DNA of 46,717 nucleotides. It comes from Escherichia phage vB_EcoS-IME253. Of this stretch, positions 2,941 to 37,327 are shown piece by piece. Position 1 is the first letter of the stretch. Each line of letters starts with the position of its first letter. The translations under genes were made by a program, and so were the position numbers. Below the pieces are notes generated by a model. That model made no database searches. It was not told where the DNA came from and saw only the letters and a program-made list of their open reading frames with translations. The stretch lies in sequence record NC_047810.1. The stretch is one strand, 5' to 3'.

Positions 2941-3156
2941 ATGAGGGAAGTAATCAACGCCGCTACGGCATCAACTGGCGGTGCTGCGGTAACTGGCGCG
3001 GCAACTGGTCAAATGACTATAGCAATAATCAGCCTTATCGCTCTAATCATTTTTGGAGCTTGGGGTGCTTACTGGAAGTATAAGGATAGCCAGGCAATTC
3101 GACGAGCGCTTGAATCAGGGGATTTAAAGACGGCAATCAAGATAAGGAGCAGGTAA
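2941..3156 (+). CDS. putative holin (pinholin-like, single TMD)
   Basis: ATG 2941 with RBS aaaggtgg; hydrophobic segment TIAIISLIALIIFGAWGAYW; directly upstream of endolysin. Confidence 0.5.
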   Translation: MREVINAATASTGGAAVTGAATGQMTIAIISLIALIIFGAWGAYWKYKDSQAIRRALESGDLKTAIKIRSR

Positions 3157-3642
3157 ATGAAGCAGAAGCTGGTAGTTGGTGCTGCGACCGCTGCGGCAAT
3201 ATACATCGCAGCGCCGCTTATTGAGCTTGTAGAGGGTGTTGAGAATAGGCCTTACATGGACATTGCTGGGGTGAAAACTGTTTGTGCTGGCGTAACTGGT
3301 CCTGACGTAGTTTGGGGTAAGACTTACAGTAACAGGGAGTGCCGGAACCTGCTGGAGAAACACATTCAGATTCATGGGAAGCATGTTCAGGATGCAGTTA
3401 CCTACCCAATTTCACCGCAGACAAGAGCGGCGTTAATCAGCTTTAGCTACAATGTTGGTGGTCATGCTATGAAGAACTCAACAGCAGTTCGACTTATTAA
3501 CCAGGGTAAAGTGGAGCAGGGTTGCAGGGCTCTCGGGGTGTGGAATAAAGCTACCATTAACGGCAAGAAGGTTGTGGTTAAGGGGTTGGTAAATCGCAGG
3601 AATGAGGAGATTAAGTTATGCTTAAGTGGATTGCAGCGTTAG
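3157..3642 (+). CDS. SAR endolysin (phage lysozyme, GH24-like)
   Basis: E-x8-D-x5-T catalytic spacing (E..NRPYMD..GVKT) after a hydrophobic N-terminal signal-anchor; RBS aggag. Confidence 0.7.
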   Translation: MKQKLVVGAATAAAIYIAAPLIELVEGVENRPYMDIAGVKTVCAGVTGPDVVWGKTYSNRECRNLLEKHIQIHGKHVQDAVTYPISPQTRAALISFSYNVGGHAMKNSTAVRLINQGKVEQGCRALGVWNKATINGKKVVVKGLVNRRNEEIKLCLSGLQR

Positions 3643-4007
3643 TAATGTGCGTAGCTTTATCTGGATGTTCAGCAACATCCGCGCTGACCGGATTAATTGG
3701 CAGCAAGCCAGAGATTAGCGCCCAGGCTGGCGCTGAGAACAATAAGGTTGGTGTTGGGTTAACGAACAAGGTTGACTCAAGTAACTCAAGTGAAGCCACG
3801 GTTAAAGATTCTAAGGTTGGGTCACTGGATAGCTCGAGCGGGAAAAAGACTGCTGACAACTCGATTAAGGCCTCAACAATCACTGCTGAAAAGATTGAGA
3901 TCACAAATAACGAATCATCAGCGCTTCCGTGGGTCGGAACAGGAGCAATGGGGTTGCTGGTTCTTATTCTCATGGCATTAATCTTAAGACGTAAAAAAGC
4001 CCCCTAA
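3618..4007 (+). CDS. unimolecular spanin (u-spanin, T1 gp11-like)
   Basis: Lipobox LSGCSA at the N-terminus plus C-terminal TMD LLVLILMALIL; overlaps endolysin 3-prime end. Confidence 0.6.
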   Translation: MLKWIAALVMCVALSGCSATSALTGLIGSKPEISAQAGAENNKVGVGLTNKVDSSNSSEATVKDSKVGSLDSSSGKKTADNSIKASTITAEKIEITNNESSALPWVGTGAMGLLVLILMALILRRKKAP

Positions 4008-4022: not shown

Positions 4023-4368
4023 AGCTAAATAACTCGTCGTCAGTCATTGTTCCTATATTCATCATCTCTTTTATGTACTTGCTCTGATACCCGCTAAGTG
4101 CCTCGAAATTAAACTCAAATGGCCTTTTCAAACTCCCCTTGCTAACAAACTCACCGCACTTACCATCAATGTAACCCGCGCTAAGCATCTTCGCGCAGAA
4201 CTCCTTTGAAGCAGCACTGCAAAACTCTCTATGCGATAAACCCGATGCCTTGCTGAACCTCTCAGAGTCCTTATGTTGGTATATGAACCGCGCCAAATGC
4301 TGTCGCGTGAAAAAGCTGTAAGATTCGCAGAACTTAAATATATCGAGCATGAACATAATTAACTCCAT
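4021..4368 (-). CDS. hypothetical protein (about 111-115 aa, start uncertain)
   Basis: ORF on minus strand, last gene of the leftward operon before the bidirectional terminator. Confidence 0.4.
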   Translation of the reverse strand: MELIMFMLDIFKFCESYSFFTRQHLARFIYQHKDSERFSKASGLSHREFCSAASKEFCAKMLSAGYIDGKCGEFVSKGSLKRPFEFNFEALSGYQSKYIKEMMNIGTMTDDELFS

Positions 4369-4445
4369 TGCATGCTTAAAACAAATATGACACCAGAAAT
4401 CACCACAAGGAAACCAAACAATATAAGTAGAATGTCAAGCATAAA

Positions 4446-6029
4446 TCACCCCAACAGTCGTGGATTAATGTAAACTTTATCACCAATCAGGCACGTATAG
4501 TTTTTCTCATCAAGCATTGGCAGTAAGTGATCTTTAATCTTTGTCATTACACCAGCCTGAGCTTCGAACGGCTTAACCTTACGAGCCGCTTCATATAGAG
4601 AACGAATACCCACTACTCCTTTACCGTTCTTGCCTTGCTTAATTAGAATATCAATCAGCTTATTCATCTCGGCATTGTCGCCAGCGTGACCAGCGGCGTT
4701 TGCAGATGACAGATAAGTCTTGCTAAGTTCATGGAACATAATTACAGCTTCTTGCATGGTGTCGAGCTCGATCTCTCTGGACTTCTGTGGACTACCGCCA
4801 TTTGGGTTGAACCAGTTGCGCACAGTGTGAAGAACAGCTGCAATCCTTATGGCCTGCTTATCGAACTTACCCAACGCGCCGCGCAACATTGTATGTGAAT
4901 ACTTCCCGCCATCTGCAAGGTGAGGTTCCATCTCCTGACGCGCACGGTTGAGGTATTTCATCGCTGAGTTGCTTACTGTCAACTTAACATCTTGCTCGTT
5001 CATGATCTCATGAACAAGACGGAAGTAGTCGGCCTTCAGGCCACCATCAATTGGCTCGTAAGTTGAATTTCCATTCTCATCAACGAATACACGCTCACCC
5101 AGGAATGACTTTTCACGGACGAGAAGGAAACGCTCCGATACACCGATACCACGTGCGCCAGCGTTCATTATCGCGTTTATTGTCTCGTCCTGCGCAATTA
5201 CAGAGATACAACCCATAGCAACGAAACTCATGTTGTTCTCTGCATTAGCACGCGCGATAGATACGTTACCAGCATCCCATGCCTTGAGTACGAGTTCGCT
5301 GTTCGTTTTCTTCGAGCCGTCACCATAAGTCATGCCAAGCAGTGAGTTCACGCTCGTCGCCTCATCCGAGATGACCGCGAAGTTGCCCTGGCGGTTGTTT
5401 ATTCGCGCAAGACCTTCCGGCGTGGTATCTGATACAGGGAAAACGATATCGCATAGTCTCTCGAGCTTTTCCTCAAGTTCCTCCTTTTCCTCAAAGAGAG
5501 ACGCCATCTCTGATGGAGATTTTTCCTGCTTCATCTCTTTTGATAACGCAGATAGTTTGGCCATAATCTTTTTACGCTCATGCTTTCGCACTTCATTAAG
5601 CCGCTCAGTCTCAGCAATCATTGGAGCAATTGAAAGTGAGTTAATTGCTGATTTACCAGTCGATGGTGGCTGGCTTGTCACGACATAAAGAGAAGTAGGC
5701 TGCTGAGTTCCATGATACTCAACTGTAAATCGGCCTAGCATCGCAGCGGAAATACACCCCAGAAAGTGCATATAAGCTGACGACTCAGGGAACTGAACGG
5801 AACGGGCAATATTGGCTGACAGCTTACCAACAACATCAATGTCATTACCGAGTGAGATTACTGGATACTTGTCATTTGCAGCATCAATCTCGACAGGTGC
5901 TTTCCAGAATGATTGAGACTGGCGATAGCCATTGGCATTAATGGCGACGCGCAGGGGCGGGAGGTTGTCCGCGGCTGCAATTGCCATAACCTGTTCAACA
6001 GATAGTTTATCTTCGTTGAAATCAAACAT
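4446..6029 (-). CDS. large hypothetical protein (527 aa) with P-loop-like STGKS segment and coiled-coil region
   Basis: Long ORF with RBS aaggag; N- and C-terminal segments homologous to the 174-aa product of 8721..9245. Confidence 0.6.
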   Translation of the reverse strand: MFDFNEDKLSVEQVMAIAAADNLPPLRVAINANGYRQSQSFWKAPVEIDAANDKYPVISLGNDIDVVGKLSANIARSVQFPESSAYMHFLGCISAAMLGRFTVEYHGTQQPTSLYVVTSQPPSTGKSAINSLSIAPMIAETERLNEVRKHERKKIMAKLSALSKEMKQEKSPSEMASLFEEKEELEEKLERLCDIVFPVSDTTPEGLARINNRQGNFAVISDEATSVNSLLGMTYGDGSKKTNSELVLKAWDAGNVSIARANAENNMSFVAMGCISVIAQDETINAIMNAGARGIGVSERFLLVREKSFLGERVFVDENGNSTYEPIDGGLKADYFRLVHEIMNEQDVKLTVSNSAMKYLNRARQEMEPHLADGGKYSHTMLRGALGKFDKQAIRIAAVLHTVRNWFNPNGGSPQKSREIELDTMQEAVIMFHELSKTYLSSANAAGHAGDNAEMNKLIDILIKQGKNGKGVVGIRSLYEAARKVKPFEAQAGVMTKIKDHLLPMLDEKNYTCLIGDKVYINPRLLG

Positions 6030-10121: not shown

Positions 10122-10151
10122 TACCCCATCGAAACGAACGAGGAAGCAGGA

Positions 10152-22491: not shown

Positions 22492-22524
22492 TATCTCATC
22501 GAAACGAAATGAGAGATTAAAGAA

Positions 22525-30134: not shown

Positions 30135-30623
30135 ATGCAAAAATTCGAGAATTACCTTTACGAGATTGATGGAAAGCTATACTGGAAGGAGGCGAGAAAC
30201 AACTCGGCCAAAATAGAGTCAGAGGCTGGATTTATTCATCATTCTGGCTATAGGTATGTTAAATTGAATGACAAACAGACTTCATCTCACAGGATTCTTT
30301 GGTACTTAAGAAATGGATTCAAGATGCCACCTAAAGGCATGGAGATTGACCATATAAATGGAAACAGGCTTGACAACTCAGCTAGTAACTTACGGATTGT
30401 ATCTTCATCGGTAAACTCAAAAAACAGGTCAAAAAGGTCAGATAACTCAAGCGGCGTTGCGGGAGTTGGATTTCATAAGTTAACTGGAACGTGGTGGGCT
30501 ACGATATCAATAAACAAAAAGAGAAAGCACTTGGGGCTATTCGTTGATTGGTTTGAAGCAGTGTGCGCCAGAAAGAGCGCTGAGAACTTAAATGGTGAGT
30601 ACACCTATAGACATGGTAAGTAA
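30135..30623 (+). CDS. HNH homing endonuclease with AP2-like domain (second copy)
   Basis: YWK..HR.LWY...EIDHINGNRLDN..SNLR.V motif; inserted between I and J. Confidence 0.65.
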   Translation: MQKFENYLYEIDGKLYWKEARNNSAKIESEAGFIHHSGYRYVKLNDKQTSSHRILWYLRNGFKMPPKGMEIDHINGNRLDNSASNLRIVSSSVNSKNRSKRSDNSSGVAGVGFHKLTGTWWATISINKKRKHLGLFVDWFEAVCARKSAENLNGEYTYRHGK

Positions 30624-30653: not shown

Positions 30654-30703
30654 TTTACTGTAGAATGGCACAAATGATCAAAACAAACATGAGGCTTTGT
30701 GAT

Positions 30704-33700
30704 ATGGCTGAAGAGATTAAGATTTATGGTGCCAAGGGTGGTAGCCAAAAGCAGCATCAACCAGTGGAGCAGGAAGATAACCTAATTTCACTTAACAAGG
30801 TTAAGGTTCTTTTGGCGGTTGCTGACGGTGAGGTGGATCCTAACTTCTCATTGAAGGATTTATACCTTGCTGACGTTCCGGTACAAAATCAGGATGGTAG
30901 CTACAACTATGAAGGTGTTCGCGCTGAGTTCCGTGCTGGCACGCAGTATCAGGACTATATCGCCGGGCTTGACGGTGCTAACTCAGAGATTCAGGCATCC
31001 AGAGAAATCAAGAACGATACCCCGTACATCATTGCAGTTAACAATACTCAGCTTTCAGCAATTCGAGTTAAGCTATTCTGGCCTCGACTGGTTAAGCAAG
31101 AAAGCAATGGAGACCTGAACGGAACAACCTGCGAGTATGCAATTGACCTTTCTGTTAATGGTGGCGCTTACCAGGAATACACTCGCGGAGTTGCTAACGG
31201 AAAGACCACTACAGGTTACGACCGAAGCATTCGCGTAAACCTTCCGGCAGAATTTGATAGCGCGCTTGTTCGCATCCGTAAGATTACGCCGGATTCAACA
31301 AGTAGCACCCTGGTTAACGGTATGCAGATTACAACCTATCAGGAAGTAATTGACGCTAAATTCCGCTATCCGCTTACGGCTCTGGTTTACGTTGAGTTTG
31401 GTTCTGACTTGTTCCCTAACGGCATCCCAACAATCTCAATCAAGAAGAGATGGAAGTTGATTCAGGTTCCTACAAACTATAACCCTGAAACCAGAACTTA
31501 TAGCGGCACATGGAATGGTCTATTCAAGATGGCATGGTCAAACAACCCAGCATGGGTTCTTTATGACCTAGTAACAAACCGCCGTTACGGACTTGACCAG
31601 CGAGAGCTGGGTGTAGAGATTGATAAGTGGGGCCTGTACGAAGCTGCACAATTCTGTGACCAGATGGTTCCAGATGGCAAGGGTGGCTTAGAGCCGCGTT
31701 ACCTTTGCGATATGGTTGTACAGAACAAGGTTGAGGCTTACACGCTAATTCGTGATATCTGTTCAATCTTTCGCGGCCTGACTTTCTATGACGGCGAAAA
31801 GATTGGCATCGTGGTTGATAAGCCTCGCAACCCATCTTACATCTTCACCAATGATAACGTTGTAAACGGATTGTTCAGTCGCACATTTGCCAGCGATAAA
31901 AGTCTTTACACCACGGCAAACGTTCAGTTTGATGATGTAGAGAACAACTATCAGCAGGATGTTGAGCCAGTATTTGAGCTTGAGGCTACTCGCAGGTTCG
32001 GGTTTAATCCAGTCGACCTTACGGCAATTGGCTGCACTCGCAGAAGTGAAGCAAACAGACGCGGCAGATGGCTCCTAAAAACCAACCTGAGAAGCGAAAC
32101 TATCAGCTTCACTACCGGGTTGGAAGGCATGATTCCGATGATTGGCGAGGTTATTGCAGTTAATGATGCGGCATGGTCGAGCAACTATCAGTTGAACCTT
32201 TCCGGCCGCATTGAATCAGTGCAGGGGCTACAGGTTTTTACACCGTTTAAAGTTGACGCAGCGCCGGGTGACAGAATTCTTCTTAACAAGCCAGACGGAA
32301 GCCCGGAGGCAAGAACTATTGCCAGTGTTTCGGAAGACGGCAGAACAATCAACCTTAACACTGCTTTCAGTTTTGTAGCTCAGCCAGACACTGTGTTCGC
32401 AATTGATAAGGATAACCTTGCGCTTCAGCAGTATGTTGTGACCGGGATTCAAAAGGCAGATACTGACGGCTCTGATTCATTTCAGTACACGATTACTGCG
32501 GTGGAGTATGACCCTAACAAGTATGACGAGATTGACTACGGCGTTAATATTGTTGACCGTCCAACTTCAGTCGTAGAGCCTGATAGATTGTCGCCACCTG
32601 AGAATTTAACAGTGTCAAGCTACAGCAAGGTTGTTCAAGGATTATCAGTTGAGACGATGGTTATCGGGTGGGATAAAGCGCCATACGCTAAAACCTACAA
32701 TGTTCAGTGGAGAAAAGAGAATGGCAACTGGATTAACGTACCAAGAACAGCTAGCACAGAGGTTGATATCGAAGGTATTTACGCAGGAATTTATGACGTT
32801 AGGGTTCGCAGCGTATCAGATACTGAAAACGTGTCTGCCTGGTCTGGTATTGTAACGGTATCGCTAACTGGCAAGATTGGTCGCCCATCGGCACCTACGG
32901 TTATCACGGCGTCAACTGATGAAGTATTTGGTATCCGTGTTAAATGGGGATTCCCTGAAGGCTCTGGCGATACTGCTTACACTGAGCTTCAGCAGGTTCC
33001 AGATAATGGTGATGGTACTTACAATCCTGATAATGCAAGTTTGCTTACGTTACTTCCTTATCCTGCCTACGAATACTGGCATACGCCAATTCAGCCAGGT
33101 AAGGTGATTTGGTATCGCGCAAGATTGATTGACAGAATCGGAAATACCTCTGATTGGTCTAATTTCGCAAGAGGCATGAGTACTGACGACGCAAACATTA
33201 TCAATGATTTCATCAAGGTTGATATTGAAGGTTCAGAAGGATTCAAATACCTCGAGCAGAATGCGATTCAAAAGAATCAGGACATTCAGAATCAAGCTGA
33301 GGCAATTATCGAGAACGCACTGGCTAATGATGGCGATGTTCGCAGAATGACAAAGGAGAACGGCAAGCGTAAGGCTGAATATGTTCAGGCTGTGAATCTC
33401 ATAGCCGATGAAACTCAGGCGCGCGTAGAGGCTCTAACGGCCCTTAAGGCGCAGATAGATGATGAAGTTGTAGCATCGATTACAGAAGTTCAGACTGCAT
33501 TAGCCACAGAGACAGAAGCAAGGACTACTGCAGACACGACTCTATCAGCAAGACTTGGTGAAAATGAGGCGGCTTTAAACCAGAAGCTGGACGCATTCTC
33601 TAATGCCACATCGACTGGTGTGCAGTACGGAATTAGTCTTGGCCTGAAATACAATGGACAGACTTATTCATCCGGTATGAGCATGGAGCTTGTCGGCACT

Positions 33701-34021
33701 GGTGACAATGTTCGTAGTCAATTCATTTTTGACGCAAACAGATTCGCTATCAGTAACGGCATTGGTTCCGGCTCCGGTCAGTGGCAACTCCCCTTCGTTG
33801 TCGAGAATGGAAACGTAATCATCAAGAGTGCAGTTATCGGCGATGGCTCAATCAGTAACGCGAAGATTGGTAACTTTATTCAGTCTAATGACTGGGGTAC
33901 AAATTCAGGCTGGAGGCTAGATAAGGATGATGGATTGACGCTTAGGGGTTCCGATCGTGGCAAGATGAGAGTCCTGGACCGGAATGGAGTGGTTAGGGTA
34001 AAATTAGGATACTTGGGTTAA
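30704..34021 (+). CDS. tail tip / host specificity protein J (central tail fiber)
   Basis: About 1100 aa downstream of M-L-K-I; ATG 30704 with gagg (an upstream ATG at 30665 is also possible). Confidence 0.8.
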   Translation: MAEEIKIYGAKGGSQKQHQPVEQEDNLISLNKVKVLLAVADGEVDPNFSLKDLYLADVPVQNQDGSYNYEGVRAEFRAGTQYQDYIAGLDGANSEIQASREIKNDTPYIIAVNNTQLSAIRVKLFWPRLVKQESNGDLNGTTCEYAIDLSVNGGAYQEYTRGVANGKTTTGYDRSIRVNLPAEFDSALVRIRKITPDSTSSTLVNGMQITTYQEVIDAKFRYPLTALVYVEFGSDLFPNGIPTISIKKRWKLIQVPTNYNPETRTYSGTWNGLFKMAWSNNPAWVLYDLVTNRRYGLDQRELGVEIDKWGLYEAAQFCDQMVPDGKGGLEPRYLCDMVVQNKVEAYTLIRDICSIFRGLTFYDGEKIGIVVDKPRNPSYIFTNDNVVNGLFSRTFASDKSLYTTANVQFDDVENNYQQDVEPVFELEATRRFGFNPVDLTAIGCTRRSEANRRGRWLLKTNLRSETISFTTGLEGMIPMIGEVIAVNDAAWSSNYQLNLSGRIESVQGLQVFTPFKVDAAPGDRILLNKPDGSPEARTIASVSEDGRTINLNTAFSFVAQPDTVFAIDKDNLALQQYVVTGIQKADTDGSDSFQYTITAVEYDPNKYDEIDYGVNIVDRPTSVVEPDRLSPPENLTVSSYSKVVQGLSVETMVIGWDKAPYAKTYNVQWRKENGNWINVPRTASTEVDIEGIYAGIYDVRVRSVSDTENVSAWSGIVTVSLTGKIGRPSAPTVITASTDEVFGIRVKWGFPEGSGDTAYTELQQVPDNGDGTYNPDNASLLTLLPYPAYEYWHTPIQPGKVIWYRARLIDRIGNTSDWSNFARGMSTDDANIINDFIKVDIEGSEGFKYLEQNAIQKNQDIQNQAEAIIENALANDGDVRRMTKENGKRKAEYVQAVNLIADETQARVEALTALKAQIDDEVVASITEVQTALATETEARTTADTTLSARLGENEAALNQKLDAFSNATSTGVQYGISLGLKYNGQTYSSGMSMELVGTGDNVRSQFIFDANRFAISNGIGSGSGQWQLPFVVENGNVIIKSAVIGDGSISNAKIGNFIQSNDWGTNSGWRLDKDDGLTLRGSDRGKMRVLDRNGVVRVKLGYLG

Positions 34022-34030
34022 TAAATTATT

Positions 34031-34060
34031 GGCGGGTAAATCCCGCCTAAGGTTTTATTT
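34031..34060 (+). terminator. terminator-like hairpin after J
   Basis: hairpin ggcggg-taaa-tcccgcc then ggttttattt. Confidence 0.35.
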
Positions 34061-34062
34061 GT

Positions 34063-34434
34063 ATGGCTGGTTTGTATGGTTGGGAGATGTACGATTCTGC
34101 GGGGCGGCTTGTAGCTGACAATAGCAGCATAATGAGCAGGAGGCTATTCACTTATAGCGTGCCACTGATAAGGGCTTTATCTGCAAACATACCATGGGAA
34201 GTCTCATTTAATGTTAACTTCTCAAATGGAACGCCTTATGCGCATTGCAATACCAGAACAGGGGTGGTGGTCCCTGCATCTACTAACTGGTATCCAGTAT
34301 CACCTGATATAATAATATCTGGAAATGCAGTTACACTCAGGTATACAAACAGGCATGTTTCCTATCCGGACGATCTTGGGTACATACTTGCAGTTGGTGG
34401 TGTTGATGTTCACTTAGGAGTTTATAATAAATGA
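34063..34434 (+). CDS. hypothetical tail-associated protein (123 aa)
   Basis: ORF immediately downstream of J. Confidence 0.4.
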   Translation: MAGLYGWEMYDSAGRLVADNSSIMSRRLFTYSVPLIRALSANIPWEVSFNVNFSNGTPYAHCNTRTGVVVPASTNWYPVSPDIIISGNAVTLRYTNRHVSYPDDLGYILAVGGVDVHLGVYNK

Positions 34435-35228
34435 GTGATTATGGTGTTGAACTAATAAATGACTATGGTTTAAAGGTTGCTGACGCAGAGGATGTAAATT
34501 ACGTACTAAGAAGTTCTGGTACATTTAATGATTCAAATTTCTACTCATATGCAAACTCCACATCTGCAATTAGCCTCATGACCACAGGAATGAATTCGCC
34601 TCTTCTATTTCTAAAGATGAACGAAAGTAGGTCAAGGATAAGCCAGAAGCCTGGAGTTAACAAAATATCACCTGATTTTGTTAACCCAAATACCACAATA
34701 ACAAAGACAAGCATAGACCTATTCAAGTGGTGGAACATACCGCTAGGAACTGTAGAGTATTACATATTTGACAAGTGGATCCCGCCAGAAAGAAGTGATT
34801 ATGGAATGCAGATATTTAATGAATCTGGTTCTATAATCTTTGATTCTGGCTGGTACTTCCTCAAACTTAGGGATGTGCTATGGCTTGATCCAAGTTATCC
34901 AAACCATTCAGATCAGGAAGGTGGTAGTAACTGGACTAACGTCGGGAATATTGTCAACTCCGCGAACGTATCAAACTCAGCATTATCAATGCCTGTTGGT
35001 AGGGGGTGGGTTGAAACATCATTGCAGGGTGGGTACTACTATAATGAATGCTGTCACCTTGACTCATCCGGTAATCTATTTATATCCATAATACCTACAG
35101 GTATATACCTTGATGTTTCACCAACTGGCGGCTGGGTTGGCAATATGAGGACGCAAGTTATGGTTTGCGACACCTCGAGGCTGCCTCTTAATTACAATCC
35201 AGTTGAGATAAGAAAGGAAAACAAATAA
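34431..35228 (+). CDS. candidate receptor-binding protein (265 aa)
   Basis: Position downstream of J and convergent with a lipoprotein gene; no motif confirmation. Confidence 0.35.
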   Translation: MSDYGVELINDYGLKVADAEDVNYVLRSSGTFNDSNFYSYANSTSAISLMTTGMNSPLLFLKMNESRSRISQKPGVNKISPDFVNPNTTITKTSIDLFKWWNIPLGTVEYYIFDKWIPPERSDYGMQIFNESGSIIFDSGWYFLKLRDVLWLDPSYPNHSDQEGGSNWTNVGNIVNSANVSNSALSMPVGRGWVETSLQGGYYYNECCHLDSSGNLFISIIPTGIYLDVSPTGGWVGNMRTQVMVCDTSRLPLNYNPVEIRKENK

Positions 35229-35232
35229 AAAT

Positions 35233-35256
35233 AAGGCCCTTAATGGGCCTTCTTGT
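35233..35256. terminator. bidirectional terminator between convergent RBP candidate and lipoprotein genes
   Basis: A-rich run, hairpin aggccc-ttaat-gggcct, T-rich run. Confidence 0.5.
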
Positions 35257-35425
35257 TAAAACAATATCCAGCTGGTAAAACCGAATAAAGATTTTGATTT
35301 ACCTCTCCATTGCTGTATTCACAACCTCTAATTGTAACTGAGTAGTCACTGATAAGAACTATAGTTCTTTCACCGCCTGAACAACCAGCTAAAATCATTG
35401 CAGTGATAACGATTAATTTTTTCAT
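35240..35425 (-). CDS. small lipoprotein (candidate superinfection-exclusion protein)
   Basis: Signal peptide with lipobox LAGCSG; 61 aa; convergent to RBP candidate. Confidence 0.5.
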   Translation of the reverse strand: MKKLIVITAMILAGCSGGERTIVLISDYSVTIRGCEYSNGEVNQNLYSVLPAGYCFNKKAH

Positions 35426-35426
35426 C

Positions 35427-35531
35427 TTAGAACCCTTTAAAGTTGCTAGCCAGCATCAGAAGCCATACGAAGAAACCAGTAGCTGCTACACCGAAGATTG
35501 CAGAGATTACGTTAGTAGTTAAGTTAGTCAT
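35427..35531 (-). CDS. small hydrophobic peptide (34 aa, single TMD)
   Basis: Hand-translated; RBS aaggaa; directly downstream of the reverse-oriented element and leader. Confidence 0.35.
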   Translation of the reverse strand: MTNLTTNVISAIFGVAATGFFVWLLMLASNFKGF

Positions 35532-35571
35532 TTTGTATTCCTTAGTAAGTGTGTTTCGTTTCGATGGAAAG

Positions 35572-35615
35572 ATAATACCGCATCCTTGCGATAAGTGTTT
35601 AGCAATTAGTGCTAT
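35572..35615 (-). promoter_or_regulatory. palindrome-plus-hexamer element (copy 11, minus orientation)
   Basis: rc atagcactaattgctaaa at 35598-35615; rc TATTAT 35572-35577; rc leader catcgaaacgaa; drives 35427..35531 and lipoprotein gene. Confidence 0.5.
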
Positions 35616-35884
35616 TAGTGAATATCCTCACAGCCAGGAATGGACTTAACATTGTAATGCCGATAAGCGAATATCAAGTTAAGAGCCTGCTCGACCGTGC
35701 ATTTAAGGGCGCCAGAGATAATAAATGAAGACTCAGTGATGTGATTTATTAACTCATTTCTGACAGGGTCGTCATCTGCTAGTAACTCTGCGCGCTTAAC
35801 AAAAAGAGCGTTGTTTACCAGGATTGTCACAACCTTTTCATTGAGCTCTTTCTTCGCTTTTGCAATCTCTTTCTCGTAGTTCAT
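35615..35884 (-). CDS. hypothetical protein (89 aa)
   Basis: ORF ending in TAATAG inside the reverse-oriented element. Confidence 0.4.
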   Translation of the reverse strand: MNYEKEIAKAKKELNEKVVTILVNNALFVKRAELLADDDPVRNELINHITESSFIISGALKCTVEQALNLIFAYRHYNVKSIPGCEDIH

Positions 35885-36026
35885 CTTATACCGCCTTGTT
35901 TTCGATTTGCATTACGCTATTAACTGACATCATAACATTCCGATTCTGCTGCTGAGTAGTGGTTACTACATGCTGCATTTTATTGCAGTCACTTTAAATG
36001 ACCACATCTTATTGTGGTCATTAGTG

Positions 36027-36716
36027 CTACTTATCTTTAAGTAGCAACTTGATATCAATTCCTAGATTATTCTCAATCAATCCAGTCAGTGCACCTACCT
36101 TTTCCTTAAGTGCGAAGCACTGTGTTTCATACTTGAATCTCAACTCCATCTCATCAGAGCGACTTGACCAGCACTGCCGAGCCTCGCACGCTAGCTCATC
36201 AATCTTCTTGTCAAGTTCCTTATCTGACAGGGTGATTTCAGTAATTCGCTGCTCAGCTACGATTCTCTGGATCAAGTGAGCATTCTGCGCTTGCAGGTAT
36301 CCATTCTTCATTCTTTCCTCTTTAAGTTCATCAATGCTTACCATCTGACTGATTACTTCCGCTTGCTTGTTGATGGTGCTTTGCATTTCTTTAAGCTTAG
36401 CAAGCACTGCGCGACGAACGAACTTTGATTCTCTCATCCCAATCAAAAGCATCTGTTCCATATTGAGCACTGGTGAGTTGATTGACTTTCTATAACCTCC
36501 TCTACCCTCACTCTTGATTACGAAACTTTCGTAGTCAAACTCAAACCCTTCAAGCTCATCCTCTATTCTCTCAACAAAGTCATTGTGTCGAACATTGGAC
36601 TCCCCAGCGATCAACCTCGCTGGGTTGATAACTTCATTTAAAAACTGATAACTATTCATTTTTACGTCTTCATTAAGTAATGCTAAGTTCATTTTCGTCT
36701 CTCTTTTGTTTTTCAT
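36027..36716 (-). CDS. putative regulatory protein (antirepressor-like N-terminal domain, coiled-coil C-terminus); start may be 36692
   Basis: First minus-strand gene downstream of reverse-oriented element 36797-36840; domain call is weak. Confidence 0.4.
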   Translation of the reverse strand: MKNKRETKMNLALLNEDVKMNSYQFLNEVINPARLIAGESNVRHNDFVERIEDELEGFEFDYESFVIKSEGRGGYRKSINSPVLNMEQMLLIGMRESKFVRRAVLAKLKEMQSTINKQAEVISQMVSIDELKEERMKNGYLQAQNAHLIQRIVAEQRITEITLSDKELDKKIDELACEARQCWSSRSDEMELRFKYETQCFALKEKVGALTGLIENNLGIDIKLLLKDK

Positions 36717-36796
36717 TCCTAAGATTTGAGGAGTTAACTAAGTTCTTTTCCTCAATTTGAGGAGGAGTTGACAGCACCATTGCCGCCACGCGCCTA

Positions 36797-36840
36797 AATA
36801 TACCTAAAGATAGCCAGTTGTCTTTAGCAAATCGTGCTAT
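36797..36840 (-). promoter_or_regulatory. palindrome-plus-hexamer element (copy 12, minus orientation)
   Basis: rc atagcacgatttgctaaa at 36823-36840; rc TATATT 36797-36802 (22-nt spacer). Confidence 0.45.
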
Positions 36841-36940
36841 TTATCGACAATTTCACCATAAATCACAGTTACACGTAACCGATGTAACTCGATGTATACA
36901 ATCTCATCCGCGGGAAATGATATACGCGCTGTTACGCCAA

Positions 36941-37030
36941 TTTACGCATTGGTTACATTAAAATATCTATATATATCAACCTTTTACTCTTATTATTATT
37001 ATTATATATATTACTGTGTATATCATGTAA
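36941..37030. repeat. AT-rich 90-bp repeat, copy B
   Basis: tttacgcattggttacattaaaatatctatatatatcaacc...ttattattattattatatatat; matches copy A. Confidence 0.6.
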
Positions 37031-37327
37031 CTACTTCTATAGAGTGTTCCGGTTATAATTTTAATATCATGTGGATTTATACAGTATTGCGCGGCAGCTA
37101 TACCAATGCACCCTCAGCGAGAAACGGCATACACGATATACACGATGTTTACATTGAGCTATGGCTGGCTTGAGATGCCAAAAAGCGTAACTAGTGCCAA
37201 TGCCTACACGAAATTACAAAGATTCACGCGTAAACTTAAATCAACGATTGGCAAAACCAATTGGACTGGTTACGGTGCTGAATATATAGTTACCTCATCG
37301 AAAGCAATCAACCAGAGAGATATATAA

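Follow-up and report, generated by a model that had tools for sequence, protein, structure and literature searches.

Escherichia phage vB_EcoS-IME253 (IME253; sequence record NC_047810.1) was analysed over its full 46,717 nucleotides, which are called the window below. Directly behind the gene of its central tail fibre protein J it carries two rightward genes, gp60 and gp61, followed by a convergent leftward pair that encodes a 34-residue peptide and a lipoprotein, gp62. Quite probably, this locus is a terminal-receptor specificity cassette in which gp61 acts as the receptor-binding protein (RBP) and gp62 as the exclusion factor. The assignment of gp61 as an RBP is held with good confidence, and the assignment of gp62 to superinfection exclusion (SE), which is drawn by analogy, is given somewhat better than an even chance. 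An earlier reading made from the sequence alone (the sequence-only reading) had proposed such a pair. The RBP half of that proposal is supported by the position next to J, by a profile link, by co-variation of the J tail and by the FepA dependence of the phage; the exclusion half is plausible in view of the slot that gp62 occupies and of the joint exchange described below.

The phage and its receptor have been published already, and loci of this kind are known (Maffei 2021); that of IME253 is a FepA allele that has received little study. IME253 uses FepA and its infection is TonB-dependent, the evidence for FepA being the sequencing of resistant mutants (fepA deleted), a clean ΔfepA strain, complementation and adsorption rates (PMC6499177). 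The terminal receptor is therefore FepA and not FhuA (PMC6499177), and it was not among the candidates named in the sequence-only reading (FhuA, BtuB, LptD, TolC and others). The phage belongs to the Rtp-like coliphages of the genus Rtpvirus (Braunvirinae). Phages ZL19, phiA2-1, TR3 and Rao1 carry the 1.8-kb locus at 99.9-100% identity, and the recorded host of phiA2-1 is E. coli ΔfhuA. Receptor data for these four phages were sought in the literature, where ZL19 and Rao1 were mentioned only in defence-system papers. The literature search also found no study of the individual cassette proteins, which are annotated as hypothetical. RBP loci downstream of gpJ that carry cognate SE proteins have a described precedent (PMC8594841). 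The four open reading frames (ORFs) of 123, 265, 61 and 34 amino acids listed in the sequence-only reading are all present, and the locus comprises the following genes.

30665..34021, + strand: J, central tail fibre or tail-tip protein of 1118 amino acids, with Pfam GpJ domains (phrog_31)
34063..34434, + strand: gp60, 123 amino acids, small soluble all-beta protein (AF2) with an N-terminal 'YGWxxxDxxG' hairpin, always directly 5' of a gp61 homologue
34431..35228, + strand: gp61, 265 amino acids, soluble all-beta protein, candidate FepA-binding RBP, overlapping gp60 by ATGA
35240..35425, - strand: gp62, outer-membrane lipoprotein precursor of 61 amino acids, with signal peptide 1-14, lipobox LAGC and Ser at +2
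35427..35531, - strand: 34-residue peptide with a single transmembrane domain, hydrophobic stretch V8-A28 (Kyte-Doolittle 2.21)

gp60, gp61 and the C-terminal tail of J

The start of gp60 at 34063 follows the end of J at 34021, which places the locus directly downstream of gpJ in the sense of Maffei et al. (2021), and gp60 and gp61 are translationally coupled. The sequence-only reading had noted both ORFs downstream of J, and this arrangement was borne out well beyond IME253: their homologues are paired, adjacent and 3' of J at about 25 independent loci in phages and prophages. Wherever the context was readable, J was followed by a gp60 homologue of about 120-127 residues and then by a gp61 homologue of about 255-268 residues, an order shared by lytic Drexlerviridae and by E. 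coli and Serratia prophages of the lambdoid type. Homologues of gp61 were found in four identical coliphages, two Klebsiella phages (~48%) and one Brenneria phage (30%) of the phage collection, in 20 clusters among 5.8 billion proteins and in 13 IMG/VR loci. The gp61-type cassette is present in 8 of the 5,426 complete E. coli genomes.

Structure prediction and a homology search for 34431..35228, proposed as a check in the sequence-only reading, yielded both a fold match and a profile link. gp61 shares the fold of a solved small-siphophage RBP of the LptD type (9rpt_C), with a structure-aligned identity of 11%; this is indirect, model-based support for its predicted role as the virion RBP for the terminal receptor. 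The same 11% leaves gp61 outside the LptD-type RBP family as delimited by more than 30% full-length identity (bioRxiv 10.64898/2026.04.02.716166). Sequence comparison at the pairwise level was negative: BLAST of gp60 and gp61 against the T1-type proteins, tblastn of gp61 against the LptD-type RBPs and a PDB sequence search with the gp61 profile all found nothing, and Pfam and NCBIfam gave no match for gp60, gp61, the 61-residue lipoprotein or the 34-residue peptide. At the profile level gp61 matched phrog_425 (the T1p31 family) at 6.9e-5, and a scan of 1.84 billion representatives with the HMMER family profile returned 159 proteins at E<=1e-3, many of them about 220-260 residues long and aligned over the N-terminal ~150 residues. 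A broadened gp61 profile, which was built transitively from these HMMER matches and could carry some contamination, aligned with the FhuA/T1-type protein (Sd1 gp26, JulesPiccard 0030, MM01_38) over 189 columns (HHalign Prob 94.7%, E 6e-8) and with the LptD-type RBPs (Rtp44, OzMSK) over 51 columns (HHalign Prob 91%, E 1e-6). The narrow profile reached only 14% with the T1-type protein, and in narrow profile comparisons a hairpin motif alone was aligned. By these comparisons gp61 is a remote homologue of the T1/FhuA-type cassette protein and a remote relative of the LptD-type RBPs, two groups that a preprint treats as unrelated families (bioRxiv 10.64898/2026.04.02.716166). For gp60, only the N-terminal 16 residues align with the T1-type small protein of ~101 residues, in a weak match (hhalign E 0.0037, Prob 9%).

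The hairpin motif, (S/D)YG-h-x-h-h-(D/N)-x-x-G, is present at the N-terminus of gp60 and both at the N-terminus and in the middle (residue ~122) of gp61, and it recurs at equivalent positions in the FhuA-type and LptD-type proteins. The N-terminus of gp60 and the middle hairpin of gp61 matched each other with an hhalign E of 2e-5, and narrow profile comparisons gave weaker matches of the motif. The AF2 model of gp60 (pLDDT 77) is all-beta and starts with the hairpin. In the gp61 family the segments richest in insertions and deletions and least conserved are residues 76-90 and 166-180, and residues 106-165 are the most conserved. A 42-nucleotide direct repeat lies within gp61 at 34429-34470 and 34789-34830 (+), with 71% identity and the copies 360 nucleotides apart. 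The two copies code for the 'SDYGxxxxNxxG' hairpin, once N-terminally and once in the middle of the protein. This hints at an internal domain duplication; the DNA match may be due to chance, yet it agrees with the protein motif.

A different function for the pair has been considered elsewhere. The T1-type homologues bear the PHROG labels 'membrane associated protein' and 'outer membrane protein', and a 2026 paper on KanT1 speculated on an SE-related role for the T1 homologues of gp60 and gp61 (PMC13164509). In that case gp60 and gp61 would be accessory exclusion factors associated with the envelope and not virion RBPs, and the choice of receptor would be made elsewhere. However, no hydrophobic or transmembrane segment and no signal peptide was found in gp60 or gp61, so that such labels are unsupported for these two proteins. 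The pair also lies directly 3' of J, on the same strand and inside the tail gene block; it follows J even in prophages and phages that carry no adjacent lipoprotein; and gp61 folds like an RBP of known structure while the J tail co-varies with the pair. An envelope function is thus regarded as highly improbable, and gp61 is retained as the candidate RBP.

The 1118-residue ORF was identified as J by its Pfam matches (FNIII-A_GpJ 1.7e-39, Phage_Tail_Tip 1.9e-31). Its last ~30 codons (33930-34021) are specific to the cassette type. The C-terminal ~45 residues are unlike the LptD-type and FhuA-type tails but resemble the end of J in an E. coli prophage that bears this cassette. The pattern common to IME253 and that prophage is '...DW-GxNSGW...GLTLRGS..G..RV.D.NG..RV..GYL', and the remainder of the two J proteins differs. 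LptD-type and FhuA-type J proteins each have a distinct tail of their own, and a conserved R-V-x-x-G strand forms the end of J in all types. The J tail therefore co-varies with the cassette type, in agreement with a preprint that names the J tip as a possible mediator of compatibility with the RBP encoded at the locus (bioRxiv 10.64898/2026.04.02.716166).

The exchange of the last ~30-45 residues of J together with the cassette would also be expected if the J tail itself recognized FepA, in the manner of lambda J or of J proteins of the TolC and LamB types, and gp60 and gp61 were assembly chaperones or bound a different (primary) receptor. In some relatives, distal J domains do set the use of LamB, TolC or NupG (bioRxiv 10.64898/2026.04.02.716166). 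Yet the variable tail of only ~45 residues, which ends in the universal R-V-x-x-G, is shorter than a receptor-binding domain would need to be and is better suited to a docking site. Moreover, J of IME253 is devoid of the extra C-terminal domain of lambda-type J, and gp61 resembles a proven RBP. Recognition of FepA by the J tail is considered improbable, and binding by gp61 remains the preferred assignment.

In the prophage of E. coli 06-00048, the J gene upstream of a gp60/gp61-type cassette (L033, 1512-4730) is called a pseudogene by PGAP ('incomplete; missing C-terminus'). The call is probably wrong, being due to a J that is naturally shorter in phages with such a cassette, and the flag fits the idea that separate proteins have taken the place of the receptor-binding end of lambda-type J.

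Boundaries of the exchanged unit and the lipoprotein gp62

The backbone of IME253 around the locus is Rtp-like: J is 97% identical, and the sequence beyond 36870 is 91% identical. Compared with the LptD-type phages Rtp and OzMSK, homology ends at 33888-33929, about 30-45 codons before the stop codon of J, and resumes at 35519-35615. Compared with the FhuA/cor-type phages Sd1, MM01 and JulesPiccard, it ends at 33893-33929 and resumes at 35379-35418, inside the signal peptide of the lipoprotein. These breakpoints imply that the exchanged unit consists of the C-terminal tail of J, gp60, gp61 and the mature part of the lipoprotein. Judged by these alignments, the lipoprotein signal peptide, the 34-residue peptide and their promoter and leader are shared backbone. 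A backbone that is 91-97% identical to that of the LptD phage Rtp surrounds a cassette that is wholly different, and the same cassette allele occurs in lambdoid prophages as well. The allele is thus exchanged horizontally as a unit and goes with the terminal receptor, here FepA, and not with the phylogeny of the phage.

The leftward transcript and the intergenic regions contain the following elements.

35532..35615, - strand: promoter and 5'-leader of the leftward transcript, with a -35-like TAAACA at 35596-35601 and a -10 TATTAT at 35572-35577
35555-35567, - strand: leader motif CCATCGAAACGAA, which follows the -10-like TATTAT and a small GC hairpin
35233..35251, either strand: bidirectional intrinsic-terminator-like hairpin with a 7-bp GC-rich stem and T-runs on both sides
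34031..34047, + strand: GC-rich hairpin with a U-rich tail between the J stop and gp60 (minimum free energy -13.7 kcal/mol, z -2.8)

The leader includes a ribosome-binding site (RBS), AAGGA. Together with the -35 and -10 elements, CCATCGAAACGAA and the first four codons (MTNL), this RBS is conserved in Rtp, Sd1 and JulesPiccard. It is rtp45 itself that has this leader and MTNL in Rtp, and in the cor-type phages the leader drives the 34-residue ORF and then cor. As the leader and promoter are those of the Cor and Rtp45 genes, gp62 occupies the promoter-proximal slot of two established exclusion lipoproteins. The 34-residue peptide and Rtp45 share the leader and MTNL and then diverge (window 35520-35531 (-), L016 5713-5724 (-)). 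The conserved stretch of leader and start may serve as a recombination arm through which the gene behind it is exchanged. The motif CCATCGAAACGAA was also seen at 2-14, 2597-2609, 5213-5225, 10126-10138 and 22496-22508 (+). Six copies at <=2 mismatches were counted where ~1 is expected, a number reached in 0 of 100 shuffles. The motif is conserved upstream of homologues of the 34-residue ORF in Drexlerviridae of E. coli, Shigella, Klebsiella and Pantoea, and is probably a family-wide promoter or 5'-leader element.

The 34-residue gene lies upstream of gp62 in the same leftward transcript. It is translationally coupled to gp62 and is not a separate unit; the stop and start codons are spaced by 1 nucleotide (TAAGATG). 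An RBS-like purine run precedes each of the two genes. The ORF has exactly 34 codons in 151 Drexlerviridae records and its product is conserved in the C-terminal half ('...TGF.VW.L.LAS.FKGF'); a paralogue was not found within the window. The gene is found ahead of a DNA methylase gene in Klebsiella phage Sushi and close to the lysis genes in Pantoea phage AAS23. The peptide was considered as a receptor-specific partner and rejected, being common to FhuA- and FepA-type cassettes and present elsewhere in Klebsiella and Pantoea phage genomes. It is a generic conserved leader gene and not a specificity element. The sequence-only reading was right about its single transmembrane domain, as one hydrophobic stretch is present. 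As the peptide is shared across receptor types, it is not part of the specificity pair.

gp62 was confirmed as a lipoprotein of 61 residues with the lipobox LAGCSG, as previously read from the sequence. It starts with MKKLIVITAMILAGC|SG, which contains the canonical lipobox L-A-G-C, and the signal peptide MKKLIVITAMILAG|C is followed by Ser at +2, with no inner-membrane retention signal. By the Lol-pathway rule, Ser at +2 directs sorting to the outer membrane. The UniRef name of the protein is 'Lipoprotein' and its gene has an RBS. The signal peptide is homologous to that of cor at the DNA level, and DNA homology to the cor-type phages covers 35379-35425 only. A full-length match of gp62 to Cor (phrog_1119; 7e-5) was lost once the signal peptide was removed, and membership of that family was rejected. 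This match and the tblastn matches (E ~0.1) are explained by the shared signal peptide. gp62 was found unchanged only in IME253 and four near-identical phages, so that conservation cannot confirm the ORF. The two cysteines of the mature protein, at 21 and 41 of 47 residues, could form a disulphide.

Several points weigh against the assignment of the locus as a specificity cassette. The mature gp62 (47 residues) found no PHROG family at E<=10, whereas mature Sd1 Cor found its family at 3.7e-20. A word-indexed search of 5.8 billion proteins recovered no relatives beyond gp62 itself, and no similarity of the mature part to Cor, Llp or Rtp45 was detectable. The spacing of its cysteines is unlike that of the disulphide that clamps the termini in Llp (Cys11-Cys58) and in Sd1 Cor (Cys9/Cys57). 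A convergent lipoprotein was present in only 2 of the ~22 loci with a gp61 relative, namely the window and IMG/VR contig L032, and the two are mutually unrelated. Co-occurrence is therefore no argument for the pairing of RBP and lipoprotein. The possible contamination of the broadened profile is to be added here, and gp61 is the presumed contact for FepA, with gp60 and the tip of J as other candidates. The pairing of gp62 with the RBP is supported by the joint exchange of its mature domain and by its slot equivalence to Cor and Rtp45.

In contig L032 the gp61 homologue is 43% identical and the convergent lipoprotein has 76 residues (4348-4578 (-), MKIIVAIAAACVLVVSGC...). Two extra cysteines are located near its mature ends and its sequence is unrelated to gp62 or Cor. 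It may be an independently recruited exclusion lipoprotein.

The lack of homology of the mature domain to known SE lipoproteins, and the absence of such a lipoprotein from most gp61-family loci, would also suit a gp62 that is not directed at FepA. It could be a moron acting against another envelope target (e.g. competing phages or colicins), or it could form a spanin-like lysis module with the 34-residue peptide. The latter is favoured by a weak PHROG match to an Rz-like spanin (1e-4) and by the order of membrane peptide and lipoprotein, which superficially resembles Rz/Rz1. However, the spanin match, like the Cor match, covers the signal peptide. A two-component spanin (Rz/Rz1) formed by the peptide and gp62 was rejected, as the peptide is a transmembrane domain only, with no periplasmic domain, and the lysis cassette is elsewhere. 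A complete holin/endolysin/u-spanin cassette is present at 2941-4004. The position of gp62 in the Cor/Rtp45 slot behind the same promoter, and the exchange of its mature part with the RBP genes, likewise speak against a function unrelated to FepA. Such a function is taken to be rather unlikely, and exclusion at FepA remains the favoured role of gp62.

Related receptor loci and neighbouring genes

The closest counterpart of the IME253 locus is the T1/phi80/N15-type cor cassette, which is specific for FhuA (Sd1 gp27/gp26/Cor; JulesPiccard bas03_0029-0031). Both loci have J, a small protein, a protein of ~225-265 residues and a convergent lipoprotein preceded by the 34-residue peptide, in the same order and on the same strands. 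The lipoprotein signal peptide, the 34-residue gene and the promoter are common to the two at the DNA level, and IME253 is TonB-dependent, as is T1. They differ in the receptor, which is FhuA in one and FepA in the other, in the mature gp62, which is unrelated to Cor, and in gp60 and gp61, for which BLAST detects no pairwise similarity. Some FhuA cassettes contain a third protein (e.g. Sd1 gp25) that IME253 does not have.

In the LptD-type locus (Rtp, OzMSK, Oekolampad), an Rtp44-like RBP is accompanied by an Rtp45-like lipoprotein (PDB 9RPT), and gp61 shares the RBP fold. Here, in contrast to IME253, the RBP and SE genes form one operon on the reverse strand, a small protein like gp60 is absent, the receptor is not a TonB-dependent transporter and exclusion acts by steric displacement (bioRxiv 10.1101/2025.07.07.663478).

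The pb5/Llp system of T5 follows the same logic as that proposed for IME253, in which an RBP dedicated to a TonB-dependent transporter adjoins a small outer-membrane lipoprotein that blocks the transporter from the periplasm (PMC9586334). The two phages differ in tail architecture and in the genomic position of the genes. T5 infection is TonB-independent, whereas IME253 needs TonB. The T5-like phage H8 depends on FepA and so uses the same receptor as IME253; tblastn of gp61 and gp62 found no T5-like phage.

The 'reverse-oriented element' that the sequence-only reading had placed between the convergent genes corresponds to the hairpin with the 7-bp GC stem at 35233-35251. Its predicted energy is -14.5 kcal/mol on one strand (z -2.8) and -14.7 kcal/mol on the other (z -2.2). 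With T-runs flanking it on both sides, it looks like a bidirectional intrinsic terminator for the convergent transcripts. The hairpin between J and gp60 (34031-34047) may attenuate read-through as a terminator and so set the stoichiometry of J and RBP. An Rfam scan of 33800-37200 gave no matches.

Between the cassette and the recE-like exonuclease gene lie an ORF of 89 residues (35615-35884, -) and a KilA/anti-repressor-like ORF of 229 residues (36027-36716, -; phrog_8235, 6e-83). The segment 35616-36870 is not found at the equivalent position in Rtp. On the other side of J, an HNH endonuclease gene (30135-30623 (+); PF13392, phrog_99 8e-55) is situated between the tail assembly gene I and J. 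Nothing in Rtp or OzMSK corresponds to the segment 30076-30630, so the gene is likely a homing-endonuclease insertion.

Proposed function of the cassette

In the proposed mechanism, gp61 would be held non-covalently on the cassette-specific C-terminal tail of the J trimer, directly or via gp60, a proposed adaptor or accessory protein of the tail tip. Docking strands could be provided by the N-terminal 'YG-x-x-x-D-x-x-G' hairpins, for which the monomer model shows disorder, and the variable loops of gp61 (residues 76-90 and 166-180) would contact FepA. On the opposite strand, the sigma-70-type promoter and leader would drive the expression of the 34-residue membrane peptide and gp62. The latter would be lipidated at Cys15 and, with Ser at +2, sorted to the inner leaflet of the outer membrane. 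There it would bind the periplasmic face or the plug of FepA and lock the surface loops of the receptor in a state that gp61 cannot bind. Such a block would guard against superinfection and keep progeny from being lost to cell debris, as do Llp at FhuA and Rtp45 at LptD. Cryo-EM has shown Rtp45 bound to LptDE on its periplasmic side, where it prevents the binding of the RBP (bioRxiv 10.1101/2025.07.07.663478), and the Llp-FhuA mechanism has been predicted to extend to other TonB-dependent transporters (PMC9586334). By genomic position and analogy, a FepA-blocking role of gp62 is plausible.

A wider proposal, given a little less than an even chance, is that gp62 founds a family of FepA-jamming lipoproteins and, at the same time, that the FhuA(T1)-, LptD- and FepA-type RBPs descend from one ancestral beta protein. 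gp62 may then be a new mature domain of 47 residues that was grafted onto the conserved cor signal peptide, and the ancestral RBP may have docked on J via the repeated N-terminal 'YG-x-x-x-D-x-x-G' hairpin that is also present in gp60. If so, gp62 would be a natural inhibitor of the entry of enterobactin, colicins B and D and phages.

Small siphoviruses that target FepA are rare, and the cassette is present in only 5 known coliphages. It is absent from two large receptor surveys, and receptor-prediction models are consequently without it. The defined swap boundaries, in the J tail and in the lipoprotein signal peptide or leader, make the cassette a ready module for retargeting Rtp-like phages. 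The fold and profile links among the FepA, FhuA(T1) and LptD types of RBP suggest a common origin of these host-range proteins. If gp62 does block FepA, the jamming of TonB-dependent transporters by lipoproteins would extend beyond FhuA, and a small inhibitor of enterobactin uptake would be at hand.

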